DNA of 62,130 bases, counting the filler, from Sluysia triapertura (lineage: Eukaryota): NCBI GenBank assembly GCA_046118255.1. It is 5 parts of 5 records of this genome, joined end to end, with 100 filler letters (N's around TTAATTAATTAA, not from the genome) between each part and the next. Parts side by side here need not be neighbours in the genome. Positions count along the whole stretch, not along the records: positions 1 to 11,525 come from JBJNIA010183746.1; positions 11,626 to 26,641 come from JBJNIA010241436.1; positions 26,742 to 38,327 come from JBJNIA010183124.1; positions 38,428 to 50,489 come from JBJNIA010142833.1; positions 50,590 to 62,130 come from JBJNIA010183490.1. One strand, 5' to 3'. Below the pieces are notes generated by a model. It was not told the DNA's origin, ran no database searches, and worked only from the letters and a program-made list of their open reading frames with translations. Below are positions 7,291 through 60,673 of this stretch, in pieces. The stretch's first letter is position 1. The number at the start of each line of letters is the position of its first letter. The position numbers and the translations under genes are program-made.

Positions 7291-7620
7291 TGTAGGGAAA
7301 TCATATCAAAATATCAGCACTTCATCGCATAAAAACATCTCTTACATACACAGAACATTAAACAAACTACTTGACTCATTCAAAAAACAAACATAACCAT
7401 TGTATATAATTGTCATGAACTATAGTTATTGTTATTATAAATCCAATCGTGTTAAAATATATAATAATAATTAATATTGTTATATAATATAATTATCATG
7501 ATTATTTTATAATAACTTTTATAGTAACATCACAACATCATCAACATCGTTTTAAAATATGTAATAATTACGTTATTGTTATCATTATTTCTTTTATATT
7601 TACTATCAACCTTTCTTGTT
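7291..7620 (+). repeat. TGTAGGGAAA-start dispersed repeat, copy 1
   Basis: Aligns with 10334-10603: tgtagggaaat...cacttcatc...aaactacttgactcattcaaaa...cgttattgt...tttcttgtt. Confidence 0.8.
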
Positions 7621-7637
7621 CTTTTATCTGTCTTTAG

Positions 7638-8122
7638 AAAAACATTGTTTTGTTTCTAAATTTTCTGAACACAGAATATCTAGTTTTTATATGCTTCAGT
7701 GGTGTGGACAAATTGCAGATGGAATGACATTTAAATAATATGGGAATAATTCATCGCGACTTAGCGTCTCGTAATATTCTACTATGTGATATCAATAAAG
7801 TACAAATTACAGACTTCGGATTGGCTAGATTGATGGCAACAACTGAAGAAAGTATTACTATAAAATCAGGTCCAGTTCCTATTAGATGATTGGCATTGGA
7901 AACATTGTTATATCAGACTTATTCTTCTGCCACTGATGTATGGGCTTACGGTGTAACACTTTGGAAATATTCACATACGCAAAACAGCCTTATGAAAGTA
8001 TAACGACTACTGAAATTAGATCATATTTGCAAGAAGGACATCGTTTGGATCAATCAACAATTTGTACTTTAGAAGTTTATATAACAATGATCAAAAGTTG
8101 GTACAAAAATCGAATTCGATAA
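7638..8122 (+). pseudogene. EGFR/ErbB-family tyrosine kinase domain fragment, intronless, frameshifted
   Basis: Stitched translation: MLQWCGQIADGMTF/NNMGIIHRDLASRNILLCDINKVQITDFGLARLM...GPVPIR*LALETLLYQTYSSATDVWAYGVTLW/EIFTYAKQPYESITTTEIRSYLQEGHRLDQSTICTLEVYITMIKSW. WCxQIAxGM, ITDFGLA, VPIxW and GxRLxQxxICTxxVY are EGFR-family hallmarks. Two frameshifts and one W-to-stop change. Confidence 0.92.
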
Positions 8123-8341
8123 TATTCGGTTTCCAAATTCAGTGTTTATATGCTTATCTTTCGGATTAAAATTGCAAAAAATAGGATCCATATCTAAAAA
8201 TTAGTTCTACTGGAACTCAATGTTATAAATTTCGATAGTTGTACGGTATGACGTTTATTGATTATTACCGTATCAGTGCTTTTGTCGCTATCTTCCTCTA
8301 CCGTTTAGATACGTAATTTAACTATTAACCCTTTAATTTTA

Positions 8342-9400
8342 GATGAAGATAATTCTGACTATGATCACTTCGGTAACATTAAAGATTTAGAAAATAATAT
8401 TATCCGTTTTGTTGGAAACAATTTCAATTAAATTCAAGAAGATCACATAATAACCTCGGAACAATCTAGTTCACTCGTAAAAGAAGTTGTATCTTATACC
8501 AAACTAAATGCCCATAGTCTAAATTGTAGTATTGATGAACGTATTCGGGTAGAAGTAAGTAAGATTGTTAAATATAAGCATGCATGTGATATATTAAGAC
8601 GAATGTTTAAAGCAAATTTGTGTTTTTATATTTGTTTAATTAAAAAAATTTGAGAAAACGATTTTTTGAGCTTAGTAAAAGTTTACAAAATTATGATGTT
8701 CATAACGCTACCTTCCTAGGATTAATTAGTGAGGATGAGAATGAAGTAGAAATTAGTCACAAGCGTTTTAAGTGCAGTGATAATGACTTAGTTATTATGC
8801 GTTATGTATTGGATAAATGTGATGCTATGGGTAATTAAAGAACGAATCCTACATAATCGTTTACAAATATACCAATTTGGATCTTCGAAATTATTCAGAA
8901 GACCAAGAACAATTAAATAAACTATAATTTTGAAACCAATAAAATTTCCAGTAAATGACAGTATATTCACTGAAGATTATTCTTTAAATGATAAATTGCT
9001 TAGACCCACACTTCAACCATCAGAACTCAAATGAAACGATCAGGTTTGGACGATGAGATACTACACTTCAAGTCTGGTTGGTGTCTTTATGCTACGAATC
9101 CAGATGGAAATTGCACAAGGTATGGAAGTAACTGCTTATATTCACACAACGCAGCTGAATTGTCCAGAAAATTTAGTTTATAAGTCATACTTAACGGATC
9201 ATAAACAAAGAATTCAACAATTAATTTCAACCTTGAACGAAAAACCCTTCAACGATAACAATTTTCATAATTTAAAAGTAATTATTATTTCTTACCGTAT
9301 TTAAATTCTTATAATTGAGTTTTATTATTCTTTATTATTTTTTAGAAACACGAAAATTTCGAATTCGAGATGTGTCGAGGAAGTGATTCGCAATAAATGA
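8342..9400 (+). pseudogene. Decayed gene with a single Unkempt-type CCCH zinc finger (paralogue 1)
   Basis: Frame from 9061 reads LHFKSGWCLYATNPDGNCTRYGSNCLYSHNAAEL (C-x9-C-x6-C-x3-H at 9082-9147). Upstream coding-like fragments include ORF 8650-8838. The listed ORF 9053-9304 is in the wrong frame over the finger. Confidence 0.75.
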
Positions 9401-10333
9401 ATTTTAAAATTAACTGTTAATGAAAATTTAAATATAGATGTAATAAGTAGTAATCGTTTTATTTATTCAAAAGATATTTTCGAATAATTAGATGTGATAA
9501 AGAACATTTAAGCCTTAATGATTATAAAGAAATAAAACCTAAAAATGTAAGAACATATTTCAATTCAAAATTTCTGAATTATAAATTTCAATTCATAACC
9601 CAACAAAATTTTTTAAATCGTAAACAACAATTTATATGACAACACCTTCATTTCTGGATGAGTAATTGAATTTAAGGGATTAGTTCAACATTAATAAATC
9701 TTAAATTATAGATGAAAATTAATAAGAAAAATAAAACAAACAGAAAAATCAAATTTCGTGCATGCTTGGAGTCCATTTTATTACAGTTTGGTCTAATAAA
9801 TTTATTTTTAGGGTTTATGCCACGTTTGTTAATTGTATATATTTAAATACAGGAAATAATTCTATAATGTAAACTTAAAATATTTTGAAAGACAAGAATA
9901 AACATTAGAAAATACCAACTCCACTATATGTATACAAAAACTAATAGATCTAAAGAATGGACATCATTAGAAGAAGCTTTTGTATTAATTTGAGCTAATA
10001 GATACAGATTTTGTAAAAAATAATACAAATATGACATGTTAAAAGTTGCGGTTAAAGAAATTATAAATAACTAGAGTATATTGTGGTGACCAAATATTTT
10101 TAAGTTTCTAAACAATTTTATTTTTTGCTAAAACTTATAAACTCTTTTCATATTAATTTCACACATGAAGCAACTTAAATTTGTTAAAGTATTTACTAAT
10201 TAATAAACAAAATTCTTATAAATTTTATCATATTTTCGACATAATTTATATGTGAAATGCAACTTAATTTTATAAATGTTATTTTTAGTTAGTTACTTTT
10301 AAGACTTAAATTTCAGAACTTTTGAAGCGTTTG

Positions 10334-10603
10334 TGTAGGGAAATTACATCAAAATAACAAACACACTTCATCACATACGAACATTTCTTACATAAACAGA
10401 ACACTAAATAAACTACTTGACTCATTCAAAAACAATCATAGTCATTGTACATAATTATCATTAGTTATATTTATTGTTATCATAACATGTATCATAATAA
10501 TCTCATGTCATCAACATTCAATTTACACTTCATTTTTTAATTATAATTATAACTTCGTTATTGTCAAACTTTACAAAATTTTAGCTTTTTCATTTTTCTT
10601 GTT
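10334..10603 (+). repeat. TGTAGGGAAA-start dispersed repeat, copy 2
   Basis: Direct repeat of 7291-7620 with the same sharp 5' start. Confidence 0.8.
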
Positions 10604-10708
10604 GGTATTCATGTGTATATATATATGAAATTGTATATGTGTCTCCATGTTTTTACGTATGATTATTCCTTTTCACTCTTCTTTCACTTTTTCTTTTCAA
10701 AGTAAGTA

Positions 10709-11525
10709 CAGTGAACGCTCTATATAAGCAACTTAATTTTTGAATATAGATTGTTGACTTAGGTTTATACTTTTTAGAAAAAAACTCATATGACAATGGC
10801 TAATAAATTTAAAAATAGTAGAATAATTGTTTGAATATTGATATGTTTTATGCTGCCATATTAAGAAAATATATCTGAAATTTGTTGACTTATTAATAGA
10901 TAAATATTTTTATTTGATTTTTCCTTAAAAATGAACCAGAAAGAAAAAAGACGCCCTATTTCAATGAAGGATAAACTATCAATTTTGAAGGAAATTGAAT
11001 ATGGTAAAAGAGCAAAAGAAATTTGTACTGAATATAAAGTCACCAAGTCTACGATTAGCAGGATAAAGGAAAATAAGGAAATTCTAGAGAAATATGCATC
11101 CGAAACCTATGTGAATCAGGATAAAATAAAGCGAATGATGACAATAAAGTAAAGAGAAATCGACAATACGGTGTATTCTTGGTTCTTGGAGCGACGACGC
11201 CTAAATGATTTGGTTCCAAACGAAATTATAAAATTAAAGGCTCTTAAATATGTAAACTATGTAACGGCCCCCAGACATTTGTGGCAAGTGATGGATGGTT
11301 AGCAAAATTTAAAAAAATATTATCCGTTTCTGGAGAGAGCGCATTTAAAGATAGATTTAAAAAATATATTGCCGAAAGCGGTTTCTCGCCTGAGCAAATA
11401 TATAACTGTGATGAAATAGGGCTCGTCTATAAAAGCTTACCTAATAATACTAACGTTTCTAATTTCGAAAAGTCTGCTGCTGGGAGAAAAGCAATGAAAG
11501 AAAGAGTAACAATTATGCCTTGCGT
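10709..11525 (+). mobile_element. pogo/Tigger DNA transposon, 5' part with disrupted transposase
   Basis: TA followed by a CAGTGAACGCTC TIR-like start. ORF from 10931 has a psq-type HTH (KRRPISMKDKLSIL...VTKSTISRI), a CENP-B HTH (VYSWF; FVASDGWLAKFKK) and the DDE start (QIYNCDEIGL...KERVTIMPC). Stop at 11150. Truncated by the gap. Confidence 0.92.
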
Positions 11526-11625: not shown

Positions 11626-13195
11626 GTGTTTGAAAGGGACCTTCGAATGAAGATAACGTTTGGCAATGTTAAAGCAAGGAAAGCCTCTATATTGAGCAAA
11701 GTCGAATTTTAATTAATTTTTAATTTAAAATGCTAAAATTTCATATTGAGAATGATGAAGATATGATGAATTTGGTATGGAATTATTGCTATGAAATAGG
11801 AGAATCAGAATATGAGGTTGAAATTTTTGTGAAATGGTTCGTTTGGGAATGAGAACCTTAAATATTTTCTATTAAAACTGGAGTGTGAGGAATTGAAAAT
11901 TAATTAGAATGCAAAAGCTAAAGTTAAATTCATTATTTTTATGAATGTCAATAATAATAATTGCTATTTTAATGTAAGAAGTGATTCATGAAAAAGTAGA
12001 TCGAATAGAGTAGAAAACAAATTAGAGTTGATTGTTAATCGAATTCTTTTGTTTTGCTTGACAGGTCTTACCATGTAAATGTCAAAGTCGTTTTAGTCGG
12101 TTTTATCTTTAAAAGAGGTTTTGATGATTTATGTAATAGTAATTCCTGATTGCGAAAGTAGAAATGTTTGGATGACATAAAAGTATAAATTAGAACATTT
12201 AGGCATTTTTACTCGCACATAAAAAAGGGGAGACAACATTCACAGGTGATCGCGAAAAGATCCATGCTTTCGTAAAGCCTTTTAAATTTTCCTTTAAATA
12301 AATATTAATTTTAATAAGGGCTATTTTTATTATAATATTTTAGATTTCATTATAGATCTGGTTAAAACAAATCTTTGTTTTTTTAATATATTGTCATAAT
12401 ACTCTAAATTTTATACTTATTGATTTAGTTAAAGTAAATTGTATTTTTATCTTTGGGATTCGCCATCTCACATTTAGTAAATAGTTTTGTATTTTTAGGG
12501 GGATTCATTTTTATTTATTCTAGATAATTTATATTAAAATTTTTGGAAATGTCCATTTGAAGTAATTGTAGCATATGATATTTTTAAAGAGTTTATTTTT
12601 GTGTTATAACTAGAGTGAGATTAAGAAACACAAATTGATATTTATTGTTATTATAGATTTAATTTGTTTTTGGTAATTGTTAAAAATTTCATATTACAGA
12701 TAATCATTATTTTGTAGATTGTTTAAAATATATTAAATTGTTGTATTCGATTTTATCATTGATTTGTAATATTAGAAAAATGTTTATTATTGTGGTAAAT
12801 ATTTTTGGGAATTTATACTATTATTATTAGAAAATACTTTCGTGACAGTTTAATATAAGGCCCAACATAATTTTAGTGCCCCAGTTATTTTAATAGCTAA
12901 TTTAGTGTTTATTATATATTATTTAATAGTTTCTCTTTAGAAAGGCATACTATTATTGATTATTTTTATTGATTATAAAAATATTTTCGGGGATTTTTAT
13001 ATTTGGGGGAATATTACTATAAGTTATTGCATAATTATTTTTAACTTTACAGGATTAAATAAGTTATTTATTGAAATTGTGATAAGTAATAAAATATTTA
13101 TCTTCAGCACTGGTTAGTATTTTGTTTATTTTATAATTATAAGTTTGTTTGGGGCCATTTTATTATCGCGCCATTTTTTGTATAAGATTCTATTG
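11626..13195 (-). mobile_element. TGTTGGGA-family element, copy C (longest internal portion)
   Basis: Colinear with A, B, D and E. Minus frames give GFTKAWIFSRS and FDFAQYRGFPCFNIAKRYLH, the latter open in this copy. Confidence 0.75.
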
Positions 13196-13359: not shown

Positions 13360-14450
13360 GCTTTGGAAGCCTATCTTCATATTTCGATAGAAAAACGTAT
13401 GGAATTGACTGGTTTAATTAAGGAATTCGAGAATGCAGATTACTACTTAATGAAACTAATTCGTTTAACAAGCTAAATGATCAGAAACTAATACAAACAA
13501 AGGATAAAACACCACTTTTTATTCGTACGGCGTGGATATTCAGACTATAAATGAAGAAAACAAAGGTCTTAGGGAAGTAGTTAAAGAGTTGTCAATTCAA
13601 TTAAAACGACAGAAAATTAATGATGAAGAAAAGGATGATGAGGCTGATAAAGGAATGTTCAGTAAATTATTCATGATAACGGAAGCTGATGAACAAACTG
13701 GCGAAAGTACCAATATTGAGGAGTCGTCAATTAACGAGAATATCGATATAAAATGTTTATTAAAATAGACAAGATAGATAATGAATCAATAATAAAAGAA
13801 GTAGCTAACTTTGGACATATATGTGCATTAAATAATAGCAAAGATAGTATTTGTGAAATATTAATAAAAAATTACCCATTATATTTATTTTACAAGATAG
13901 TGCTGATGATACTCCTTTAAATAAAGTAATATTTGAAGAACATGTCGAAGCCGCTGATATAATCTTATCTGTTATAGAAAAACATATTCTATGGGCGATA
14001 AGTTTAAAGAATTCTGATCATCAATCATCCTTAATATTATATATAACATGTAATATCCTTGATTCTTTTATTGTTCGTTTGTTAAATAAGGTGCTCGGTT
14101 AGATATACAGGATAATTTAGATAATAACCCTCTTATTTATGTGATAAAAATGATGTATTTAGTGTTTCAGCGTCCAACTCATATGAACTATAATATTTTA
14201 CAAAAAGCAATATTGGAAAATAATGAAGAATCGGTCAAATATTTGACAGAATTGAAAAAATAGAAAAACGGTAGTAGGTAATCAGTCAGTCATACATTTG
14301 ATAGTACTTAGTAATCCTAATTTAGAAATGATGCATTTAATACTTAAGAGACCTGACTTGAATTTAGATCAAACTAATGCAGATGGCGAAAACGCCTCGG
14401 ATCGCTCTAGGTCTAAACGACAAGATACATGTAAAGATTACATTTTATGA
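13360..14450 (+). pseudogene. Ankyrin-repeat protein, IkB/Cactus-like, no introns evident, disrupted
   Basis: Stitched fragments: HICALNNSKDSICEILIK/LQDSADDTPLNKVIFEEHVEAADIIL...LKNSDHQSSL...LLNK/ARLDIQDNLDNNPL.../NILQKAILENNEESVKYL/GNQSVIHLIVLSNPNLEMMHLILKRPDLNLDQTNADGENA. Preceded by the acidic/coiled-coil ORF 13532-13768. Confidence 0.8.
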
Positions 14451-18006: not shown

Positions 18007-19027
18007 TATATCATTATTAAGATATATATCATTATTAAAAAACTAATACAACTCAACATTATACAATAAATCTAACATCATTATATCATGAGCAAACATT
18101 TTTATTGACATCAAATTAAACAAATTTTACTTAAGTTAATTAACAAATGTACTTTAATATTTTAACAAATAAAACCTTGTAAAGGGTTGTTTCTTCGTAT
18201 TTCTCATTCTTTTGTTTTAATGTAATTACTATACATGCTACTTTTACCGTTACAATTCATCAAAATACCATATCTCAATTCCTCAATGACATTCACCTTA
18301 TTCCGTTTTCCTGAGTGCTAACCCTTATTCAATCTTTATCCTTCACTAATCCCAATTTTAATGATAACATTTACGTCGTAGTTAACGTAAAAATTAGTTA
18401 TTTTAATTAGGTTTTATAATTTAAAATTAAAGTTAAATTTGTTCCGATAATATATCATTAAAGTATATATTAAATTGATGTTTATAAGATGCAAATCCCA
18501 ATATGTTATTGAACATGACGTGCAACGTATTATACAAAATATTCCTGTGAAAAATAAATTTATTATTTTTAAGATAAATAATAACAGAATTATTATAAGA
18601 CAAGAGGATAAGAGAATTGTTTATCACAAATCCCATTATCATTGTATAATTAAAAAGACAATGAGATTTAATCAGTAAAATTAGTCAGCTTATTACCGAC
18701 TAAAAAGAATGAACATTTTTAATTTCCGTAGCGTCCAATTTCAAATTTTCAATCTCCCAAATGATTGTAAAACTGTAATATAACCATTTATATTTTTGCA
18801 GAAAAAACAGCACAAAAATAAGGCAGATGAGGAAGAAGCCTAAGACTCTTTTAGCTTTAGAGACACTGCTTCAAATCATTTGTGGAAAAAGTGACATTGA
18901 GGCTTATTCTTCAGCAGAAAACTAAAATACATATTAAGAGAATCTAAAAAGGAGGTTAGTAGCTCAGAATTTAATTTAATTTTCAATTTACAAATGCTTA
19001 TATTAAGGAAGTCTTGAATATCTTTTA

Positions 19028-19095
19028 GAATATATACAACCAGTACTAACAGAGAATGTCAAATTGCTAGAAGATTATTAAATATTTAAGAAAAA
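19028..19095 (+). repeat. Short dispersed repeat (second copy at 38264-38327)
   Basis: tatacaaccagtactaacagagaatgtcaaattgctagaagattat is near-identical to the contig end at 38264-38327. Confidence 0.8.
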
Positions 19096-24956: not shown

Positions 24957-25830
24957 TGTTGGGATTTCCCAAGTGTAGATCAGGAAAAGAGTAAGAAACA
25001 TATGGAACTATAAAATCAAGGAAGAACCGATACAAAGTGATGGATTGAGAATTATAAACGTTGAAATAATTTATAATGATCTTAACGGTTAAAGAATATC
25101 TTAAGGTTCCACAAACCTATATAAGGGTTTGAGACCTTATGGAAGCTTGAGATGGATTAGAAGCATTAAGGTACCTTTGAACTTTAAGAGACCTTGGAAC
25201 ATCGATGAGCATTTGAGATCCTTTAGTAATTTTATAAAGTGTTTAAAATCTTTAAAATAGTTGAGAAATAAAATCATAAGATATTGGTATTAAGAATAAA
25301 TCTAGTATAGTAATAATTAATATAAAGAAGTAGAAAAAGGAATCAGAGGTGAAAACAACTAGAGCCTCCTGAATGCCTTATAAACTACTAAAATATTTTA
25401 GAACCTCAATAAAACCTTTAAACATAGAATAAGATTAAGTTAAAAAAATACGTTTTCGTGAATAACTTTTGAATGTGGAACGCTACGTTAAATTGGAAAC
25501 TGTGTGTGTATTTGTTTTGAAAAGACCTGTCGATGAAGATATGGTTTGACCGAGTTCATACAAGGAAAGCCTTAATATTGAGCAAAGTCGAATTTTAATT
25601 AATTTTTAATTATGGAATGTTGAATTTTTACACTTAAAGTGATACAAATGCAATAAATTGAATGTGAGATGATTGCTATGAAAGAGGAGGATCTATAAAT
25701 GCGTTCAAAATGTTTGTAGAATGATTTGTTTGAGAATAAAAAGCTTGAAACATTGTTCATTAGAAAACTGAGTGTGAAAAATAGAAAACTAAATAAATAA
25801 CAGAAAGTGAAATTAAATTCGTTATTTTTA
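24957..25830 (-). mobile_element. TGTTGGGA-family element, copy D (intact terminus)
   Basis: Starts TGTTGGGATTTCCCAAGTGT on the plus strand. Colinear with A, B and C, and the reverse complement of E. Confidence 0.8.
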
Positions 25831-26479
25831 TGTTTTATGATTTATCGTAGCTAATAATTTCTAAAAACGTAACACAAAGACTACCAATAAAAACAAGAAT
25901 AAAATTAAAATCGTACAAATGTAAGTATCACTTAAAAATAATTAAACATATAAAACCAGATAAATGATAAGTTATATATCGTTTATGTTTCAATAAGATG
26001 TAATGTAAAATTATTGGAAGATTTTCAAATATTTAAGTATTTGGGGTCCTATTTTATTTCCATTGAATCCTTTATAGGTCCTATTTAATTTCAGCGAAAA
26101 CACAAAATGTTCACATACTCAAATCGAATTTAAATTATTTATTTTTTTAATTTAATTACGTTTATGTTACATTTATGTATTTATGCAATATTTATGTAAA
26201 TAAATTATATGATAAATATAGCAAATTAAAAAAAGTTTAAGTTCTAACTTATGAATATTCCTGTTTGTTTACGATATTACACTTGCATAACTCCAATAAA
26301 ACTAATCTGCATACTTCGCATATTGTACAGTGGTAGTATAGTGGCCCGAACTTATCGATCATGACGGGTCGGTGAAATAAAAATACGAAATGTAAACATT
26401 TTCTTATCGGAACATCTTCGACATATAGCAGATTAAATAAACGTTGTATTGTTAAATTAGCGTCGGAGATGCCTCAACA

Positions 26480-32479: not shown

Positions 32480-33838
32480 AAAGTGATTTAGGAACACCGA
32501 TATATGATTCATAAGAATTGCACACTTCTATCTTTATCAAGAAAAACGAATTTAATACCAAACTTCACAATAAAAATAATATTATTTTTAATTATAAAAT
32601 AAATTCAAAAATTACTTAAAGCATGGATCTTCTTATTTTCGTTACTAATTGTTATTATTGTTGTATTATCGTTGTAGTTGTTGCTTTGTGTAATAAATTT
32701 TTTTAAAGTTTTCCTTTTTGTATTTTTTCATCATCTAATAATTTCCAATTTTGTGATTAAACATTTTCTCACACATATCACTGCAACATTCTTTGAGAAT
32801 TAATCTGACAATAATAATTTTGACACTTACATGGTACAGACTGTCAAACTTTATTAGATACAGAACACACAAAATTTGATTTACGATTATCTATTATTTT
32901 CCTTTACTCTACTCAATCTACCTTTACTTAAATTAATTCTCACATTAAAATAACAATCATTATTATTATTAACATACATAAAAAAATAAGTAATTTAATT
33001 TTAGTTTTCAGAATTTAATTGATTTTTGGTTTTCACACCCAATTTTCTAATGAAAAATGTTTTAAGCTTCGTATTCTCGAACAAACCACTCTACAAACAT
33101 TTCAAACTCACTTCTAGATTCTCTTTCATAGCAATCATCTCATATTCCATTCATTACATTTGCATAATTAAGAATTGATTAAAATTTAACTTTGCTCAAT
33201 TTTAAGGCATTAACTTGATCAAACCATACCTTCATGGAAAGGTCTTTTCAAAACAAATACACACACAGTTTCAAATTTAACGTAACATTCCACATTCTAA
33301 AGTTATTCATAAAAACGTACTTTTTCTTAATTTTTAGACTTAATCTTATTATATGTTTAAAGGTTTTGTTGAGGTTCTGAAGTTATTTAGTAGTTTATAA
33401 GGCATTAAGGAGGCTCTAGATATTTCACCTTCACCTCTCTGATTTCCTTTTTTACTTCTTCATGTTAATTATTACCACATTAAACCTATCTTTATTATTT
33501 TTAAGCAATGTTTTTATTTCTCAAATATTTTAAAAATTTTAAATACTCTATAAGGTTACTCGAAGTACTCAGATGCTTATCAAGGTTTCAAGAATACCAA
33601 AAGATTAATAAGGTCTCAGATGATCTCAAAATTAACAAGCTCAAAGTTATTCTAATGCCTTTAAAGGTTTTTCAAGTCCACTTCAAGCCTCCACAAAGTA
33701 TCGACACCCTATATCGGTCTTTGCAGTCTTTAGTTGTTAAAATTATTATAGATGTTTATAATGTTCAATCCATCTCTCTTCATTTTATAGCTCCATATGT
33801 TTTTCCATCATTTCCTAACACACTTGTGAATCCCAACA
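32480..33838 (+). mobile_element. TGTTGGGA-family element, copy E (inverted relative to A-D)
   Basis: Ends ...ACACTTGTGAATCCCAACA, the reverse complement of the D terminus. KLLKAWIFLFS at about 32610. ORF 33508-33858 parallels ORFs 1527-1757 and 4760-5067. Confidence 0.8.
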
Positions 33839-43500: not shown

Positions 43501-44063
43501 CACTTATATAAATTATTGTTAGTCAGCAAAAACCTAAACTCTTTATCGTTTTACTATTCTAATAATATTTTTTATTCTATCTGGAAGTATAAGTTCGGAT
43601 ACTTGTTCCGATAACTTGGAATAGAAACGCAGAATAGTCTTATTTTATTAAAATCAAATGTCACTCTATTTAATGAGAATACTCGAATTTACCTTAGATT
43701 ATTAAATCGACAAAATTTATTTTGTTTAACTTAGTCAATACACTTTAATTCTATTCCAATCAATGAAAATAAATATTTTTTCTTTTATCTTTACGTAGTT
43801 CAATTTTATATTCTTCTTTGGGGCTCTCCTTTTCACTAATTAAAGACAACAACAAAACTTAAACATAAAAAACAAAAACTTAATTAATTAATTAATTGAT
43901 ACAATAATATTGATAATTAATATAAATAGTACAACAATAATGATTTTAAATATTACTCTCAAAGTATTTTTTAACTGTCTGTATTGCTGATATAAATGTA
44001 TCCACGGAAAATCTCGATCTCAAACTTCTCCCAGTAAAATTTGATTTTGTATTACCTTTATAG

Positions 44064-44293
44064 AATATCATTTTAAAATGATTATTTATTTTATTTTAAT
44101 CTAAAACTAATTGTTAATTTGTTCTTAAATTTTGAATTTATATTGACTCTATTAAATCTCATTTTAAATTGATGAAAAGCATTATAATCTTAATGAACAT
44201 GATTTTAATTTTACTTTAAAAATAATTTTCATTTTAAATAAATTTAAATTAAATCAATTTTAGATTTTAAAAATTAATGAATATTATGCGACG
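44064..44293 (+). repeat. AT-rich dispersed repeat, copy 3
   Basis: Direct copy of 27312-27555. Confidence 0.75.
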
Positions 44294-44975
44294 GTACAAT
44301 AGTTTAAATTTTCAACAAGAGATATTGTGCATCCATCAAATCTATTTCACGATTATTTAATGAATTTGTTCGCCGAGTTGCACTTTCAATAAGCTTTCTA
44401 TAATCTAATTTTTATGACCTAATTTCAAACATTAATATTACAACAAAAAAAATATTTAAACTCTGTTTTTAATACTTGCCACCGTTTCTGAATCAGCAAC
44501 TTAAATAACATATATAATCTTTAATCATTAATCAATTTATATCCTATTATGTACGTTTTTCCTGTCGAAATTGAAAAGTATTCTCGGTGATCCGAAAGAA
44601 CAAGACAAACTTAAGAATTTCAATAAAAATGACCTGTACTCTTTATGTCCTCATAAAACAATGTGTCAGAAATTCATTGACGAATCATTTGCAATTTGAT
44701 GTGGAAAAGCCTTGCAAAGTTTTTGGAATATGCAGGGCAAATGTATCGTCGAAAAATAATGGTCCTACTTTTGAAGATTCTGAATTGGCATTGAGAATGT
44801 TACCATGTTATCTAAACGGATTTATTCAAATGAAAATCTGATTAAATTAGAGGCCTTTATCCAAAAAGGTGTTGGCATTAATTTCGGTGTTTGAAAACTG
44901 AATGTAATGAATTTGTCATTCAGTATTTGCGTTTGGTTTTCAAAATGATTATTTCCGAATTGTAACCAAATTATA

Positions 44976-45178
44976 CCGTATCAATGCAATAATTGTTCTA
45001 AAGCATTTATGCAAAGATGTTCATTGGAAAGTCACTTAAAAATGTGCTTAATGTTACAATACCATATGCATTTAAATAACGACACGAAAAATTGTACACA
45101 TGTGTGATACGTGGTTTTAATACAACGAAAATAGATTTGTTTTGTAATCATATGAGTGGCATTCAGCTCGATTATTAA
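44976..45178 (+). pseudogene. Ovo/Shavenbaby/Ovol-type C2H2 zinc fingers 3-4, disrupted
   Basis: PYQCNNCSKAFMQRCSLESHLK/NVLNVTIPYAFK*RHEKLYTCVIRGFNTTKIDLFCNHM. QRCSLESH and YAxKERxxKxYxC are diagnostic of the Ovo family. Not in the ORF track. Confidence 0.88.
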
Positions 45179-46059: not shown

Positions 46060-46231
46060 ATCAAGGTATTCTTTAGCTGTTAAAACTACCGTAAATGCTT
46101 TAATTTTTGCGACTCGCATTTCAACGCTGTCTACAACGCTGAATCCATTACTTGGTATCAGTTCTTTCTTTGTTTTATAATTCTATATGTTTCTCAGGCA
46201 TTTTCTAATACACAGTATGGCAATCCCAACA
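46060..46231 (+). mobile_element. TGTTGGGA-family element, copy F (terminal fragment)
   Basis: Reverse complement TGTTGGGATTGCCATACTGTG...GAGAAACATATAGAATTATAAAAC...GAACTGATACCAAGTAATGGATT matches the D, E and B termini. Confidence 0.75.
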
Positions 46232-48289: not shown

Positions 48290-48620
48290 CTAGTGAACTC
48301 CAAGCTAACTCGTAATAATCACAAACACCAACACAAACCAACACATCTTACATATTCAAATTAATTAACAGATTACTCAACACATTCAAAACATAAACGT
48401 AGAAATAATAATTTATAATTACTACAATTTTACGATTATTATTGTCATAATAATTATCATAATAATAATAATAATAATAACTATTGTCACAATAATATTA
48501 AATTGTTGAGTTTTTGAGATTGTTACTCTTGTGACTGCTTTTGTTGTTACGATAGTGTTTTCATGTTTTTGTTTTTTTCATGCAAATTTTTATTCTTGCT
48601 TGCATTTTGTCACTATTCTC
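48290..48620 (+). repeat. Divergent relative of the 7291/10334 repeat
   Basis: acatcttacatattcaaa...actcaacacattcaaaacataaac resembles acatctcttacatacacag...acttgactcattcaaaaaacaaac. Confidence 0.45.
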
Positions 48621-48649
48621 ATTATTATTTCTGTTACATCTATTTCATT

Positions 48650-49452
48650 TAATGCTAACAATCATTTGTAACGAATCTGCAGCTCGAAAGTACTTGCATC
48701 TACTGGCTTCAGACGTAATTTAATATCAAAATTTTTCAAATTTTACCAATTAATGCTTATCCGAATATGAAAGTTAAGTATAATTATTTTCGATATCATT
48801 CAGAGTTATTTCAAATTAAAAAATCATCAATTGATATGATAAAATCGGATTTTTATGATTGTGTAAATGTTTCATTTAAAATTGAATTCTTAATTCAATG
48901 CGAAATTGAAACTAATTTACAAACTGAAAAAATTATGTGAATTATTGCAATTACATAATGAAATAATCGATCACTGTAGTTGTTTTTCAATTCAATACTT
49001 CTAAAATATGTATTGAGTTTGTTCCAGCAATGTTTTTAAAGAAAACTATACAATGGTTTTCAATAAAACAACTTCAAATCAAACATCATTGGATAAAATT
49101 ATCAGTTCATTTGATGAGGGAAAAAAATTAACTAATGATTATATTTGACAATTTGATATAATGAGAAATATTACTATTAAATACAAAATACTGTCAAAAT
49201 GTGTACCTTTATGTAAACAAATCGAATATCGTGTTAAAACAATATCAAGAAAAATTAGTTATTATGATCCAATATACGAAATAATTTTAAAATATCAAAT
49301 AGATTCACAAACAACAAATATTTCTCAATTATATCCATAGATACATTTTATTCAAGGAAGGTATGGTTATTATAGTACTTACATAATGGGTTTACATCTT
49401 TCTTTAATATCACCTGAAATAAAACTAACTCAACAATCAGTTATTTATTAGT
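48650..49452 (+). pseudogene. Decayed ORF of unknown function
   Basis: Long coding-like frames with scattered stops (QILPINAYPNMKVKYNYFRYHSELFQIKK...; KCVPLCKQIEYRVKTISRKISYYDPIYEIILKY...). Confidence 0.35.
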
Positions 49453-49561
49453 GGATGTTCTAAGTCTTAACTGCATCAGCCTAAATTGCATATTCACTAC
49501 CTTTCATTTGTGTGTGTATAAGTCTGAGTGAATGAGTATACATGTATATATGCGATGGAAA

Positions 49562-50489
49562 TTGATCTAAATGTTGCCGGTGCACCTGTTAATCCGAACG
49601 GAATCTTTTCACATTCTTATAACTCATCTCCACATGAAAATGCTGTTTTATGTTTATCCTTCTCGGCTATTTCAATTTGCCAATAACCGCTCTGCAGATC
49701 TAATGTAAAATATTTAGCATTTCCTAACTTGTCTAACATCTCATCGATTCTTGGTAGTGGAAATACATCTTTTCTTGTAATTTTATTTAATTCTCTAAAA
49801 TCGATACAAAATCTCATAGTACCATCCTTTTCCCTAACTAATAACACTGGTGAAGAGAATGGAGAGAAGCTTGGTCTGATTACTCCAGCCTTTTTCATTG
49901 TATCTATTTGGTCTTTCATTTCTTGTTGATTACATAATGGAATTCTATAAAGTTTCTTTCTAATTACTTTATCTTCTATTAATGGAATTTCGTGTTTTAT
50001 TATAACGGAATCTCCAATATCATATTTATTTCTTGCTATTGCCCAAGGATATCTATAAATAATTTTGTATAATGTTTCTTTTTGCTGCTTAGTTAAGTTT
50101 TTATTCGTAATTTGTATTTCTTCGTAATCTTCTTCATCATCTTCAATGTTTCTTTGTAATTTTATATTTTTATTCCTTGGTTTATCATCTAATATTGTAT
50201 TTATTTGAGTCTGCAAAATATAATTGACTATCTTTCCTAGTTTTGTTCCTGCATAAATCCATTTATTTTCATCCGTATAATTTATTATTCTTACTGGTAC
50301 GTTTCCATCATTAATTCTACATATTGAATCTGCGATTCCTATATTTAATTTTTCTTGATTACCTTGTGAAGCCACAAACATTATTGGTCCATTCCTCAAA
50401 CTATTTGTTTTACCTGGTATTATACATTCTGTTCTTTTTAATAGCCATCTTGGTTCTTCTAAAATAACATCATCATTATCTATTGGTCT
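49562..50489 (-). mobile_element. Ty3/gypsy LTR retrotransposon pol fragment (RT N-terminal half), truncated
   Basis: ORF 49617-50399 has GVIRPSFSPFSSPVLLVREKDGTMRFCIDFRELN, FPLPRIDEML, LDLQSGYWQI and KTAF. After a stop it continues IPFGLTGAPATF. Ends before YxDD. Confidence 0.96.
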
Positions 50490-50748: not shown

Positions 50749-52175
50749 CTATCTAAAACAAACAAAATTTAAGTTATCTTTAATGTAATAATAAAGAATG
50801 TTTACCCTATCATGATCAATAGAACAAACGTTGTCGAATATCTCTGAAGTTGTTAGTCCTTTACATGCGAATAAATTTGTTAATCTAGAGAAATGCTCCA
50901 GCACCTGATTGACAGTGTGCACATATACATAATTAGATCCGAATTTTGTGCATTTGCCATCTTGGTAACTTGCATATGGACAAAGTGCTGGCCTACGAAA
51001 TACATCTGTACTTGATAAATTGTTGAAATAATTGCGTCGAATTGAATTAACAACAACCAATGGGACTGACATTAAATTCTTGAATATATCGTCAAAATGT
51101 TGTCCTTTATGAGGATCAGTATATTGATATACTGAGCATATCTCCAAACACTTATCTTTGTCATCCTTATATAACTGAGATGAGTTAAGTAGTAGAGATT
51201 TATTTGAAATTAACTTTACGCTTGCATTTATTGTTAGTATCTTAAAATATTTCATCACTTTTTATTCAATACACTATTTTATTTATCTTGTACGGCGGTA
51301 ACAAACATTTTTTATATGGTTTAAAGTAATCATAAATTATATTAGTAACTATTGGTTCGAGCTTTACATTTTGATTTAGATCAATCACATCAACATAACT
51401 AATTATATCTCTTCTTATTCGAAAACTCAGCATTTTTTGAATCATCTCAAATTTATCTTTACTGATTTCAAGTGATTAATAAATTTATGGCATCATAAAT
51501 TCATAAAAGGCATGCTCTTTTACATTTTCATTCGATCTTTTCACCTTTAAAATTGCACAACATTGAGAGGATGTTCCGATAGAGTTATTAATGCTTAATC
51601 TAGTTTTATTACTGACACTGGTGATTAGATCTTCCAAATCACAAACTTTGCGTCTGATTACATTTAACATACATCCATTGCTGTCTAGACAAATAAACAG
51701 CTGCTCAAGACTTTGATGGGTAAATTATTTTGAAACATTAATATCAAACCTAGGATAGAGGACCTGTATATAAATATTATAAATGAGAATTTCATCGTTT
51801 TCTCCTGAAATAATAATGCATAAGCGCTTACATATTTCATAACTGTCATCATTACATGCTTTATCAACTTTAAGACATTTGGATGAAAATCGTCTCGGAC
51901 ATGCATAAGTGAATTGGATAAATTATCTAAAATATTTTCAACATTTTACTGTGTACCAGAGAAATTATAACAAAAAATAAAGGAAAATTACAAGAAATAA
52001 ATAATCAATTTATACTAGATTTACAAGTTTACGCAATTGATTTTACACTTCATTCTAAGTTCATTTTCAAATCAATCGAAGTTAATTCATAACCTTGAGC
52101 CAGTCAATTCAATCGAACTATGATTTGATTTTGTATAAATACTCTTGTTTAAGACACTTGCATAAACTTAGCATG
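50749..52175 (-). pseudogene. Decayed gene with Unkempt-type CCCH finger (paralogue 2)
   Basis: ORF 50749-51258 contains ALCPYASYQDGKCTKFGSNYVYVHTVNQ (finger at 50917-50982, third Cys replaced by Tyr). Upstream fragments 51485-51906 are on the same strand. Confidence 0.7.
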
Positions 52176-52438: not shown

Positions 52439-55400
52439 GTCATCGTTTATTTTCTTTGTTTCGAACTTCATAAAATTTTCAGGGATATTGTTGAAAAAGT
52501 TAAAATACGTATTCATCGAGTTACTAAGATAAGACCTCACATTTTAAAAACTTTTGTTAAAATTTTATAGGTGCACTTGCAAAGCTAAGTTTCCAACTTT
52601 TTAAAATAAATTATTCTTTATGTAATATAAAGGCATTAAATTAATTTGCTTTATTAAAGCGACACTCTTAATATAACGGAAATGAGAACAGAGACTTTAT
52701 AAACTCTGATGATTAGAAGTCAGAAGTTACCAAGCTTCATTATGTTTAAATTAAACTCTATCTGAAGATAAACACTCAGCGATTTATTACAAAAATTTTA
52801 TTTTATTGTTTTAAATTTAAATATACAACTTACTGGATTTTAAGTTAAAATAATAATCTTTTTAGGTTGTAATTATATTTAAATTTGTGTTTATTATTAA
52901 TAATAATTATTATCATTTTATTTTTCTTATTTAAAGTATAGTTTGTTATTATGATATTGAGAATTGTATTTTGTTTTTAGGTTGTGTTTAAATAATTTAT
53001 TTACATTTTCATCATTAAAATTTTTATTCAAAATTTTCATATGATATTAACTATTCTTTGTCAAAAATGGCTTTAAAAACCAAATGGAAAATGAATTACT
53101 TAATTTTTTATTACGACGTTTATCATTTTTGTTGAATTATGTCAATTGGATTTTGGAAAATTTAGAAGATAGATGCAGTTCGATTGAAGAACGCATCGAA
53201 AATTTAAATCAACGTTTAAAAAATTGTCAAATATTAATTGAGAATTTTAATCCAACTACCGAATACAGTAAGTTTTTATGCTAAATTTGTTAATTTTTTT
53301 CTGATTTAATTAAAATAAAATTATTTTAAAAAATTGAAAGATATTGCTATACTTTATGAAGTTAGTTTTATAAGTAATTCGTATTCCTTTAAATGCAATT
53401 TAAATAAGATATTTGTTAAAAGTAATGTTTTAGGGAAAAGATTGTTTTGCAAAACCAAATTGAATTAATTTATTTTTGATTTCAACAAACGTTTTTTTCG
53501 GAATTAATTTTAGAAGTCAATATTATTTCAAAATTAGAATAAAATGAAACATGAGATTAGTAAGTTGCAAATATTCGGAAATATTAAAATTTCGTCATTA
53601 AACGTTTGGAATTTCAAGAGAGATAATAAAAATAATTTCTTATTTAAATATAAGTAGAACTTATTAGTTTAAATTTGTGACAAGATCTCTTATTTTAAAA
53701 GAATTCTTTTTCTTAAAATATTCGATGCGTAATTGTTTGACGAATATTTATTAATACCAGCACTAACTTAAGCCAAATGGTAATCAATATCCAATTTGAT
53801 TATGGTGTTAAGACGATGATAAAGTCCATAGTAAATAAAATCTACCGTTTTATTTCTATTATTTTAAGTGTTGCGAGTGTTTTTGGTATTGTCTTTTGCT
53901 TAAATTTGATTTTAAGGGGTTTCTTTTTTAGTTTTAGATTTATTTAAATTTGAATTTGGATTTTGTCATAGTTTCGTAGTATCACTAATAATTTTGAATT
54001 TGTGAAGTAAAATCACTATCTATGATTTGTTCTGAAAATTGTAACTATTAACAAAATTAATATTAAAATAAACGTTAATAAATCGTTTGAATTATCATTT
54101 GAATCCTGCACATTGTTTACTATTGTGTCTTTATTTGAGATTATTAACAATAACTCAATAATTAAATTAGTCTGAAATCGTGACGTATTTTCAATACAAA
54201 TTAATTAGTCTTTAAACACAGAAATAATAAGTATTCTCAATCGTAAATCAAAATCCATGGATGATGCAAGATACGAAATGTATGAGACGAGATAACCCAT
54301 AACACTGCTAATAATACCAAAGAATATTGCTTTAAGGCTTAGTCAAGTTGCTAAAGATGAAGCTTCAATCACAATGTTTACTACAAATGTGTTGAAGCAG
54401 TTATCATAATGGAGTTAAAGTTTTGTTACGTATATCTTTTTCTACGTAGTAATTGGATAATCGCTGATGAGATTAGAAATGGTAAGTAAAGAAGCATTAC
54501 TTTATGTAATTACTTATTCTTTTGACTAGGTTATAAGCCGACCAATTTTAATAATTAAATTTCAATTATAATTTCCGTCCACTTCCAATTTATCATCTCC
54601 AATCCTCTTATTAACAAAATCAAAATTTAACATTATCACAATTCTGTTTACTATTCAAATAATACATCAACTTAAAATAAACATAAAATTAATTAAATAA
54701 CAAATTTCTTTTCCATAAAAATTTTTAATACAATACGTCATATGTTAACTGTACGTTACATGTCGATTTTAATAACTTGTCTGAATTGATATCTTAATAA
54801 ACATTAATTTGGTATATTTTGATTGTATTTGAATATTACAAAAGTGCAAATTTAACTCTATATTATAGAAAATTAATTAAAATAACCAGTTTCAATATCA
54901 CTAATACTTGTGAGTTCGTATGTTATTTTCTCGTATACAGACATTTTTCATTAAATTATTAAACCAAATAACTTTAATTAAATTAATTAATTTAAGCACT
55001 GTTATATTTTCAAAAGGGTTCTCTCTTATCTTTCTTTCTAATTTAAACATTTTACAAATATATCCCATTAATAAACACAACTCATTATGATATTTTACTT
55101 TATTCTTTCAATATTACTTGTTTTATTCTTATTCCACAAATTACAGTACTCATAGTTGCTCCATCCTTCACTAAATATGTACTAATACATAAACAATAGA
55201 ACATCTAATTTTAACCAATAATTTATTCGTTTTGTTATAAATTTAAGTGATCATAAAGAGAAGGCTCAATGAAATTGCACGTCGACCTGGTTACGACACT
55301 GAACACTACCGGAAACTAATATTTCTTCATAAATAAGATAATGAAACATGGATGTTTTATAAGGTCGAACAATTTAAATTCGGAATTTTCGTTAATTATG

Positions 55401-55767: not shown

Positions 55768-55914
55768 CATTCTCATTTTTATTATCATTATAGGCGGATG
55801 CATTCTCATTTTTATTATCATTATAGGCGGATGCATTCTCATTTTTATTCTCATCATAGGCGGATGCATTCTCATTTTTATTCTCATTATAGGCGGATGC
55901 GTTCTCATTTTTAT
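55768..55914. repeat. 33-bp tandem repeat, about 4.5 units
   Basis: Unit CATTCTCATTTTTATT(A/C)TCAT(T/C)ATAGGCGGATG at 55768, 55801, 55834 and 55867, plus a partial unit at 55900. Confidence 0.95.
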
Positions 55915-58900: not shown

Positions 58901-59199
58901 AAAAAATTTATAATGTATCTTTTAATTGTGGCTTTAAAAACATGTACTTTAACTTCAAATTTTATACAGTTTATTAAAAAATTTTGATTTAAAATTTTAA
59001 GATTAATAATGTGAAATCTAAAAACACTAACAGTTTTATTGAACATAAAAATTACTAAATTATCATTATAACATGTATAACTAATGTCTTCTTTGTTGTC
59101 AGTCGTCCTTATTTTCCTATCTACACCAAAATCAATAGTTAAATTATCATTATAATAAAAATAAATAAAAATTACGTTTGTATTGTCACAAAAGTTGAT

Positions 59200-60232
59200 A
59201 TTATTCGGTTGGATAGGAAAGTTGAGTGATCGCATTAAATCTGAGTCTGGATAGATGATCCAAGTTAACATGATGTAAATATGAATCCGCCATTTGACCA
59301 ACAGTGTGAGCATGTAGACAACTGCTTGAAGATCATGCGCATGTACCATTGAAGTCGCTTCCATATGGACATAATGCCATTCCGACACGTCGATCAGAAG
59401 TTGTACACGTTTAATTGTATTATGATAAAGTCACAATTGACTAGGAGAATTTCTGACTGCGCATTATCTTAGCATAATTTATAGTAAGAACTGTGAGAAG
59501 AATTATCGTTATTCACTTTACTCTCTGATGTATCATAATTCTGTGATACATTGCTTGACAATCTTTTGTATCGATTATAGACTTAAATTCCGAAATTTAA
59601 TCATTTACATCTGTCATAGTGTTGACAAGAATTAGAGGTTGAATCTGTGTACTTTGAGATAAACTATACTCATCATCACTAAGGTCTTCAAATGTCTAAC
59701 ATAGATTTTACTCACATCTACGTTGAGGTGAATTACATTATTTGGTACTCTATCTAAGCCAGATAATTTCAACACATCTGAGTTCACATGCATTTATTAA
59801 AAGTGATGTTGTAATCAGTTTAAAATGTACATTCTTAATTGATTTTAGTAATTCATCAAAAGTTTCAAACATTACAAGATCTATTGGTAGTGAATTCTTA
59901 GGATAAAGACAATTCAAAATTTTCATATCAGGTTTTAAAGATTCAACATAACAATTTAATGTTGATTTATGAATGACGTGCCAAATACAGATTGTACTGT
60001 AAACAATATTTGTAATTGGATTACTATCATCTTTGAGAGTTATGTCTTCTCTAATTGTCCAAAATTGATGATCTAAAACTGGTCTAAGTTGTTGATGACG
60101 AAATATTATTTCTATGGCAGAAACAAAATTAAATGAATAAATAAGGTCTCTCGACGGTTTTTGACTTCTTTATACATAGATATAGCTTGTCTAACTCTTC
60201 ACATATTCTATAATTAACTCTTTTTCAAGCAT
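59200..60232 (-). pseudogene. Decayed gene with Unkempt-type CCCH finger (paralogue 3)
   Basis: Minus frame reads RRVGMALCPYGSDFNGTCA*SSSSCLHAHTVGQM (finger at 59306-59371). Coding-like fragments extend upstream to an ATG at 60232. The listed ORF 58834-59388 is in another frame. Confidence 0.7.
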
Positions 60233-60405
60233 TTAAAATAACTATTGAATTATCTATTATCAGAACATATACTGCAAAATTTTTATTCTTTTTTTACTAA
60301 GATAGATGTTTTTTCAAAATCAGTGTAAATTAATCAATAAATTGTGAAATACAATAATTATTTTTAATTATTTTTATTTTTATTTTTAATAGGTAATAAT
60401 TGTAA

Positions 60406-60673
60406 TTGGCTGCCCAATCAAAGTTGATATAACCAGTGGCATGAATACGAATTTTGATTGGGCAGTCAACAAGAACACTAAATGAGACAAATAATCGTGT
60501 AATGAACTATCATTAGTCGACAGTTAGCAAGAGAATACCAATTAATTTGAAAGACCTGTCGACTGATGACAGCTAACAGTAATTAAATTTTGTATGTGAT
60601 AAATGTAGTCACTATCAGTAGTGATAATGATTGTAAATATAAATTAAAATTATATCCACTGATAGTGGTATGT
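60406..60673 (+). ncRNA. Candidate cluster of three pre-miRNA-like hairpins
   Basis: Three unrelated inverted repeats of 64-71 nt starting about 100 nt apart (60406, 60505, 60603). Stem substitutions in hairpins 1 and 3 include G.U pairs on the plus strand. Confidence 0.5.

Follow-up and report, generated by a model that had tools for sequence, protein, structure and literature searches.

How did broken pieces of animal genes come to lie among TGT-starting repeats in this DNA? The window, i.e., the whole stretch of 62,130 bases that was analysed, consists of five unlinked, AT-rich contigs, each 11.5–15 kb long and joined by N44-TTAATTAATTAA-N44 spacers. An earlier note had described six animal modules on contigs 1, 2, 4 and 5 and had taken them for a regulatory toolkit carried by a giant mobile element or endogenous virus. 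Host-gene pieces are present on four of the five unlinked contigs (1, 2, 4 and 5), and their derivation from the host as well as their mobile-element setting were borne out. With a probability of roughly one half (0.52), we consider the modules to be decayed, gap-free host-gene pieces captured as mRNA by template switching of LTR retrotransposons, with some of the resulting chimeras being re-copied. A coherent regulatory toolkit or a large DNA virus is not supported.

Identity of the host-gene pieces

The EGFR, CCA-adding enzyme and first Unkempt-type (U1) pieces could be identified firmly by sequence comparison (Table 1). The EGFR kinase piece, with Pfam matches at E 3e-25 and 3.7e-08, agrees at 70%/65% with Smed-egfr-3, of which it represents residues 960–1136 of 1469, cut at both ends. 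In a tree of EGFRs, this host-like piece falls inside the flatworm clade (95/95), nearest Smed-egfr-3, and its depth was low (67, near background, with 2 contigs at site 7782 in one sequencing run). This placement makes a triclad flatworm (planarian) the most likely host. In S. mediterranea, introns are described for all six EGFR genes and egfr-3 is expressed in neoblasts (PMC4914847). Host EGFR genes thus have introns somewhere. The EGFR piece (492 nt, 531 expected) and the CCA piece (327 nt, 357 expected) contain no intron-sized gap, which is compatible with a loss of parental introns, and the earlier statement that no introns are evident holds for these two pieces, which are the ones that were gauged.

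The CCA-adding enzyme piece, located between the EGFR piece and the finger, had been overlooked in the earlier note. It matches human TRNT1 (E 1.9e-06, residues 123–241 of chain 4x4w) as well as PF12627 (E 1e-4) and PF01743 (E 0.07), and a word-seeded protein search found none of 352 candidates to be related. Beyond 8632 and up to the U1 finger, homology to the CCA enzyme is plausible by eye, and a further Pfam scan gave no confirmation.

U1 matches PF25427 at E 6.8e-07 and, in the PDB, mouse Unkempt (5elh) as the best of 5 matches (E 1.2e-4). The two further fingers, U2 and U3, could be placed with moderate confidence by their likeness to U1 (44% over 32 amino acids, E 1e-5) and to each other (38%, E 1e-4). 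U3 weakly matches PF25427 only (E 0.041), while U2 gave no Pfam match, no true relative among 1.84e9 representatives and, in the Atlas, CCCH-like leads only, all below 0.9; two HMMER matches of U2 (E ~1e-4) to repetitive unnamed proteins were judged to be chance. The host Unkempt protein has a tandem set of CCCH fingers. Each of the three open reading frames holds one Unkempt-type finger and the full tandem set is absent. The parts preceding the three fingers are unrelated to each other (at best, 14 of 200 shuffles were equally good), as are the tails of U1 and U2, whereas the likeness of U2 and U3 over finger plus tail was reached by 0/500 shuffles.

For the remaining pieces, the Pfam scans set the scale. 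They covered 393 window pieces, and about 255 stop-free pieces of 963 stretches of at least 28 amino acids, from which decayed remains could escape; chance matches in the same scans went down to E 8e-4. The saposin, carrier, ankyrin and Ovo identifications each lie close to this noise floor, and since chance matches reach E 8e-4, the ankyrin and Ovo modules are statistically unestablished. The two saposin-B pieces match SapB_1 (E 0.0086, 44547–44618) and SapB_2 (E 0.0019, 44897–44971) with no match in the PDB, and 8 nt past the second match starts a finger (44979–45044) that scores as generic C2H2 only. By its motif this finger may be Ovo; no statement of the family-specific motif was found in the literature searched. 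Saposin, saposin and C2H2 finger form a string on one strand of contig 4, and the saposin and Ovo pieces probably belong to the host-gene mosaic.

The array on contig 2 may be IkB-like, judging by its motif spacing. Its sole Pfam match is Ank_2 (E 0.027, 14102–14257); it has no PDB or protein-database match (0 of 259 candidates in a word-seeded search), a profile of 10 lancelet repeats gave 0.2 bits, below shuffled controls, and the fold predicted from the single sequence is not ankyrin-like (pLDDT 66). A second ankyrin-like stretch near 22580 on the minus strand found no support in the Pfam scans. Overall, the six modules noted earlier are present, and the EGFR kinase and one Unkempt finger are solid, while the Ovo and IkB-like names are tentative and come from motif likeness. 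The pieces are not isolated in unrecognisable sequence, as had been thought: housekeeping-gene pieces adjoin the modules, and the Ovo contig carries a relic of a gypsy-type reverse transcriptase (RT).

Table 1. Features located in the window (positions along the whole stretch).
Feature	Position	Strand	Evidence or remark
B0, TGT-starting C-rich LTR-like segment	6636..6840 (end approximate)	+	TATA-like box and pyrimidine tract
B1, family B copy	7291..7538	+	starts TGTAGGGAAAT; runs into EGFR piece
EGFR kinase piece, decayed	7610..8101	+	Pfam, Smed-egfr-3 comparison, tree; two frameshifts and an in-frame stop
CCA-adding enzyme (TRNT1-like) piece, decayed	8306..8632	+	PDB and Pfam matches; catalytic N-terminus unmatched
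U1, single Unkempt-type CCCH finger	9058..9162	+	Pfam, PDB; downstream of CCA piece, same strand
Possible mitochondrial-carrier piece, single copy	9700..9837	+	PF00153 E 0.0017–0.013, inside noise range
B2, family B copy	10334..10579	+	direct repeat of B1
A3, family A copy cut by contig start	11626..12867	+	CCCAACA heptamer at 12861–12867 may be its end
Decayed ankyrin-like array	13890..14430	+	roughly six repeats on visual inspection; preceded by coiled-coil-like ORF pieces that start at ~13300
A4, family A copy	24957..25911	+	TGTTGGGA start
A5, family A copy	32569..33838	-	TGTTGGGA start
Two decayed saposin-B pieces, natural order	44547..44971	+	SapB_1, SapB_2; overlooked by the earlier note
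C2H2 finger and frameshifted remains of next finger, Ovo-like	44979..45175	+	PF00096 E 0.0059
A6, family A end	46062..46231	-	TGTTGGGA start; faces saposin-Ovo string
Gypsy-type RT relic, broken off inside RT	49560..50489	-	RVT_1 E 5.5e-09; on Ovo contig
170-codon open stretch with degenerate CCCH finger U2 (50887–50988)	50752..51261	-	ORF pieces on to ~52050
Decayed ORF with CCCH finger U3 (59261–59377) near 3' end	59200..60350	-	
Three long tandem hairpins, leader of U3 ORF	60400..60670	-	folding scan
B4, C-rich LTR-like segment of ~1 kb	60800..61750	-	starts TGTGGTGGG; upstream of hairpins and U3, same strand

Repeats, strings and depth

The TGT starts noticed earlier proved to be real and belong to several high-copy families, among them A and B. 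Family A starts with TGTTGGGA at three places with differing outer flanks and family B with TGTAGGGAAAT at two places, the two start words being alike (TGTTGGGATTT vs. TGTAGGGAAAT); A3 and A1 agree at 66% over 1.2 kb and B1 and B2 are 74–84% alike. From their sequence we infer that B0 (skew -0.57) and B4 are LTR-like in nature. No repeat in the window was found with both ends, a target-site duplication (TSD), a clear primer-binding site (PBS) or a polypurine tract (PPT), and the family B pattern gave 0 matches in metagenomes. Five of the six modules lie within 2.5 kb of a TGT end, but so does 45% of the window, i.e., their proximity is not beyond chance. The RT relic agrees at 40–47% with four ordinary-sized gypsy gag-pol loci (L001–L004), runs antisense to the C2H2 finger at a distance of 4.4 kb and could be tied to no module; more than 90% of the LTR elements of Dugesia and Schmidtea are reported to be gypsy (10.64898/2025.12.11.693146). 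The window also holds DNA transposon relics (Tigger-like in the Pfam scan) and a non-LTR relic at 30353–30868 (zf-RVT, E 0.24).

Several parents on the same strand were found in the strings of contigs 1 and 4, where the saposin, carrier and Ovo names are weak and the joints come from the assembly only. On contig 1, the string EGFR-CCA-finger-(carrier) has 4/4 pieces on one strand and is bracketed by the TGT-starting direct repeats B1 and B2, which have no common TSD; all pieces within each string share one strand and none has poly-A. Indeed, 0/7 module ends rose above background (best 20-nt A count 12–15, against a median of 13 and a 95th percentile of 15), although old tails can decay.

Depth was available for contig 1 (11,525 of the 62,130 bases) and counts contigs of one run, possibly of the source sample, which is not a copy number. 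The CCA-finger segment reached a depth of 466–788 over 8086–9625, about 10x background (non-repeat bins 30–76), with 5–15 contigs carrying variant letters at 6 listed sites in 8716–9491; the summed depth of B1 was 55117 in bin 7316–7700. The EGFR and carrier pieces, unlike the CCA-finger segment, are not repeated, the latter being covered by one unique contig (9581–10363, depth 15.9). At least one module segment is thus multicopy, and the CCA-enzyme/zinc-finger cassette appears to have been multiplied. The EGFR-CCA joint could be an assembly chimera, because no record among the matches listed bridges it.

Competing explanations for the origin of the pieces

The preferred explanation is that reverse transcription of LTR (gypsy-type) retrotransposons switched template onto host mRNAs and thereby generated chimeric strings. 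The TGT-ended repeats would then be the LTRs and the carriers of the captured pieces, which would have passed through an RNA intermediate; being same-strand, gap-free and from several genes, the pieces fit RNA templates better than DNA. An older CCA-finger core may have been amplified first, with the EGFR and carrier pieces added later as one-offs, and some chimeras, e.g., the CCA-enzyme and Unkempt-finger cassette, were probably re-copied afterwards. The three fingers could represent one old capture re-used behind different partners. Any function would have belonged to intact ancestral elements; all copies in the window are broken. The idea of a selected set of regulatory modules is not supported, as the same strings contain a CCA-adding enzyme, saposin and perhaps a mitochondrial carrier, and neither is that of one element carrying all modules, given five unlinked contigs, an approximately 10-fold difference in depth between EGFR and finger and the unrelated fronts of the finger ORFs. 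Among the vehicles suggested earlier, giant gypsy elements fit the host and the others do not.

A possible, though rather unlikely, alternative is that giant Burro-like gypsies retained the finger and ankyrin ORFs over long times as accessory genes, selected to act on host RNA or immunity, and that only the EGFR, Ovo and carrier pieces were captured by accident. Such a view narrows the earlier idea and overlaps in origin mechanism with the template-switching explanation. Past selection is suggested because the three mutually diverged fingers, all within 62 kb, retain their spacing, and the CCA-finger segment is repeated. Moreover, U3 combines an LTR-like start, a structured leader and a long ORF, all on one strand: the leader hairpins (z -5.99) were matched in stability by 0/100 shuffles, took places 1, 2 and 6 of all windows given a z-score when the whole stretch was scanned, and yielded nothing in Rfam beyond 1 chance-level match. 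Planarian Burro elements are described as carrying ankyrin, BIR, MATH, BCL2 and accessory ORFs (PMC6431247), and a planarian nidovirus took a host NF-kB-type ankyrin domain (PMC6211748). However, BIR, MATH, BCL2, env, protease, RNase H and integrase gave no match among the 393 pieces scanned, no module is tied to gag-pol and the ankyrin identification is weak.

It is unlikely that TGT-ended DNA transposons (Ginger-like, Pack-type) or Helitrons took up the pieces as DNA, or from cDNA while gaps were being repaired. TGT ends are also typical of Ginger elements, and a single element with imperfect inverted ends could account for the similar A/B start words; besides the Tigger-like relics seen here, DNA elements are reported to make up 50–65% of Dugesia repeats (10.64898/2025.12.11.693146). 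Nevertheless, families A/B could be tied neither to long terminal inverted repeats nor to a TSD or a transposase, and same-strand, gap-free pieces of several genes fit RNA templates better. It is improbable as well that LINEs made independent retrocopies, or that host pseudogenes arose by duplication, and that these came to lie together in repeat-rich junk by coincidence. The near single-copy state of EGFR and carrier would agree with this, as would the non-LTR relic and the non-significant proximity to TGT ends, but there is no poly-A at 7/7 ends and no TSD, the pieces are internal and lack their 3' parts, unrelated genes adjoin on one strand and the CCA-finger segment occurs repeatedly. That an endogenous large DNA virus or Maverick/Polinton with a host-manipulation toolkit left these relics is very improbable, for although Mavericks are reported to be expanded in Dugesia (10.64898/2025.12.11.693146), large DNA viruses bear IkB mimics and hallmark genes may have decayed or lie outside the short contigs, the Pfam scans of the 393 window pieces found no hallmark gene (PolB, capsid, packaging ATPase, integrase), confirming the absence of capsid, pPolB and integrase stated earlier, a TerL_ATPase match (E 0.0027 over 45 amino acids) falls within the noise range, no relatives of U1 were found in viral contigs (0/10 candidate stretches), there is no gene-dense virus-like layout, the EGFR piece is host-like and low-copy, and polydnaviruses, drawn on as an analogy, belong to wasps while the host looks like a flatworm.

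Known systems and implications

LTR-mediated retroposition is described to yield partial mRNAs from several parents that undergo further copying rounds (Tan et al., 2016, PMC5131818). The strings resemble such chimeras in comprising partial host mRNAs cut at both ends (EGFR) with at least two parents joined, without poly-A, beside LTR-like repeats and in part re-copied. They differ from those described there in that up to four parents occur per string, the strings are old and decayed, and one finger type recurs behind unrelated partners; the direct repeats B1/B2, a candidate LTR pair, bracket the contig 1 string, and no TSD, PBS or PPT was found with them. A second point of comparison are the Burro gypsies of planarians, which carry host-like domains (PMC6431247). 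The window shares with Burro/GYPSM1 what appears to be the same host group, a gypsy RT nearby, albeit one tied to no module, host-like domains possibly including ankyrin, accessory ORFs and decay. In contrast, EGFR, saposin, Ovo, the Unkempt finger and the CCA-adding enzyme are missing from the domains that section 7 of PMC6431247 gives for Burro, and neither a giant polyprotein nor BIR, MATH, BCL2, env or integrase was found here (~255 stop-free pieces).

TGT ends and host-fragment capture are likewise known from Ginger and Pack-type transposons, for which, however, an integrase-like transposase, long terminal inverted repeats or TSD would be typical, none of which was found here. Burro domains are reportedly tabulated in the supplements of Grohme et al. 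2018, where part of the cargo described here may already appear. A possible NF-kB/IkB-type, parasite-borne ankyrin array in a planarian recalls polydnavirus IkB mimics and the planarian nidovirus PSCNV (PMC6211748), although, in contrast to these, the ankyrin identity is weak here and no viral genes surround the array.

As it stands, the process is already known, and every copy in the window is dead. A more far-reaching reading, which we regard as doubtful, is that a flatworm LTR lineage retained a CCA-adding enzyme of its own as a fusion with an Unkempt-type RNA-binding finger, within a cassette system of a constant CCCH finger and swappable captured front ends; the enzyme might then complete or mend the 3' CCA on the tRNA primer, or tail the element's own RNA. 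If so, the presence of three ORFs of this kind in unlinked contigs totalling 62 kb would imply very many genome-wide. No published report of a retroelement-borne CCA-adding enzyme was found in a search of literature other than Grohme et al. 2018 and Repbase and, if confirmed, such an enzyme would link the cargo directly to tRNA priming. Likewise, confirmation of the template-switching explanation would mean that planarian retroelements shuffle pieces of host mRNAs at large scale, including genes of regeneration research such as egfr-3, which would be relevant for gene annotation as well as for RNAi and piRNA cross-targeting.

Modules, gene strings and host

All six modules of animal regulatory proteins named in the earlier note lie where it had placed them, on contigs 1, 2, 4 and 5. 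The feature is real, its description partly wrong. The five contigs (11.5-15 kb, about 25% G+C, CpG not depleted) are unlinked and meet only at artificial spacers, so that the feature's span 7291-60673 is not a single locus. Pfam was run on 393 window pieces, 138 read through with X and about 255 stop-free ones drawn by composition from 963 stretches of at least 28 aa; evident chance matches among the 393 set a noise floor of E 8e-4. Identification is statistically firm for the EGFR kinase piece (Pfam) and for the first Unkempt-type CCCH finger, U1 (Pfam, PDB). U1 and the further CCCH fingers U2 and U3 are mutually related (38-44% alike), and U3 matches PF25427 (E 0.041). Pfam and PDB identify the C2H2 finger as generic C2H2 only; together with the frameshifted finger next to it, it is putatively Ovo by motif. 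The ankyrin array gave a single Pfam match (E 0.027) and no support in six further tests, its six-repeat IkB-like layout being judged by eye.

The best match of the EGFR piece is egfr-3 of Schmidtea mediterranea (70% over 80 residues, 65% over another 46; runner-up 59%), and in a tree of 14 rows it falls within the flatworm EGFR clade (support 95/95), nearest to egfr-3, a placement that suggests the host is most likely a triclad.

The earlier note had overlooked further gene pieces and a gypsy RT relic. Between the EGFR piece and U1 lies a piece of a CCA-adding enzyme (human TRNT1, E 1.9e-06; PF12627, E 1e-4; PF01743, E 0.07), and 3' of U1 a possible mitochondrial-carrier piece (E 0.0017, inside the noise range). 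Two saposin matches, SapB_1 (E 0.0086) and SapB_2 (E 0.0019), precede the C2H2 finger in natural order; individually weak, both fall within 430 nt on the same strand, and by our estimate a chance origin of the pair is unlikely. The finger begins 8 nt downstream of SapB_2. The modules are therefore parts of multi-gene strings mixing regulatory and housekeeping gene pieces, each string on a single strand. The "regulatory toolkit" is at least partly an impression due to recognition bias toward domains easily spotted by eye.

The layout is clearest on contig 5, where a TGT start, 1 kb of C-rich strand, an AAT microsatellite, three hairpins and the U3 ORF follow on one strand. The hairpins, long and in tandem, lie in the leader of the U3 ORF and are the most stable local folds of the window by z-score (z -6); they gave no Rfam match and resemble a pre-miRNA or packaging signal.

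Copy structure on contig 1

Depth was taken from contigs of X1, a public sequencing run containing 0.68 of the sampled window words and perhaps the source sample, placed on contig 1 alone; copy number cannot be read from summed depth, but the differences are large. Non-repeat bins showed 30-76. The EGFR piece reached 67, with 2 contigs at site 7782, and the carrier piece was covered by a single unique contig (15.9), whereas the CCA-finger segment (8086-9625) reached 466-788, with 5-15 contigs differing in letter at six listed sites. The CCA-finger segment thus looks repeated, the other two pieces not. Among the repeats, a family B copy (B1) reached 55,117 and a family A copy (A1) 266,000-340,000, TGT-ended families being thousands of times commoner than any cargo in summed depth. 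These unequal depths argue against the single element bearing all modules together that the earlier note had proposed. Among the listed X1 records, none bridges the EGFR-CCA joint.

Repeats and transposon relics

TGT-starting multicopy elements do occur, in several families, and none of their ends in the window could be paired into one element with TSD, PBS or PPT. Of the six modules, five are no more than 2.5 kb inward of a TGT end; this closeness is not significant because 45% of the window lies equally close. Families A (24957) and B (7291) have similar starting words yet opposite G/C strand skew, and may represent opposite ends of a single long LTR or a single type of element.

Positions of modules, repeats and other features
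Feature	Position (strand)	Remarks
EGFR piece	7610-8101	
U1	9058-9162 (+)	
U2	50887-50988 (-)	
U3	59261-59377 (-)	
Ankyrin array	~13890-14430	
C2H2 finger	44979	
Family A starts, TGTTGGGA	24957 (+), 33838 (-), 46231 (-)	outer flanks differ; length at least 1.6 kb
Family B starts, TGTAGGGAAAT	7291, 10334	two copies bracket contig 1 string
Other TGT starts	6636, 17966, 56408 (-), 61750	56408 is a further TGTTGGGA end
AT-rich family C	27150-27600, 30940-31200, 43900-44290	present three times, in one case 250 nt ahead of the saposin pieces
Repeat common to contigs 2 and 3	18985-19093, 38124-38327	87-91% alike
Tandem repeat	55768-55914	33-bp unit, 4.5 copies, 96% alike; several frames open; near 56408 (-) end
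Tigger/pogo-type transposase relic	10707-11525 (+)	CENP-B_N E 8.5e-08, HTH_Tnp_Tc5; directly after family B copy B2
Non-LTR C-terminal zinc-knuckle region	30353-30868 (-)	R2-like by eye; zf-RVT E 0.24 only
MULE-type transposase-like decayed ORF	21300-21860 (+)	by eye; no Pfam support
Gypsy RT relic	49560-50489	on Ovo contig
dUTPase-like stretch	50180-50489 (-)	ahead of gypsy RT; no Pfam match
Family B copy, then cysteine-rich decayed ORF	48300-49500 (+)	copy degenerate; ORF ENaC/DEG-like by eye, no Pfam match
Hairpins	60400-60670 (-)	stems 12-22 bp
Coiled-coil ORF	53051-53281 (+)	ends at donor-like GTAAGT; weak resemblance to the N-terminal part of WAVE/WASH in Pfam (E 0.01) and PDB (E 0.45); possibly a genuine host exon

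By its motifs the dUTPase-like stretch resembles a degenerate dUTPase, an enzyme reported between protease and RT in Burro elements. The cysteine-rich ORF adjoins the RT relic, antisense to it, where that relic is broken off, and may be another capture.

Proposed origin of the gene strings

The module pieces are truncated at both ends, derive from several parents and lie on a single strand, and neither intron-sized gaps nor poly-A were found in them. According to PMC5131818, template switching of an LTR reverse transcriptase onto co-packaged mRNAs, followed by more copying rounds, leaves these marks, and the strings would have arisen in the same manner as known LTR-mediated retro-chimeras. We give slightly better than even odds (about 0.52) to LTR-retrotransposon template switching onto host mRNAs, by way of a putative RNA intermediate and a putative carrier. 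Selected accessory genes of Burro-like elements are a clearly less probable source. Capture by DNA transposons seems improbable and chance retrocopies marginally more so; a DNA virus or Maverick is very improbable.

Under template switching, host mRNAs would be co-packaged and the LTR reverse transcriptase would switch onto them; more than 90% of planarian LTR elements are gypsy, as stated in 10.64898/2025.12.11.693146. The lineage is known for cargo-rich gypsies, the Burro elements having numerous accessory ORFs and domains like those of the host (PMC6431247); Burro polyprotein domains were not found among the 393 pieces scanned, and the strings are at most candidate members of Burro. Since egfr-3 is expressed in neoblasts (PMC4914847), its capture there would be heritable. 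A single Unkempt finger may have been captured long ago and reused behind unrelated front ends, its CCA version being amplified and the EGFR and carrier pieces each added once.

In the literature searched, which excluded the paper and supplements of Grohme et al. 2018, we found no description of a retrotransposon-borne CCA-adding enzyme, of CCCH/Unkempt accessory ORFs, or of flatworm gene capture of this kind. The CCA-finger fusion would be more notable if it were a selected gene of the element.
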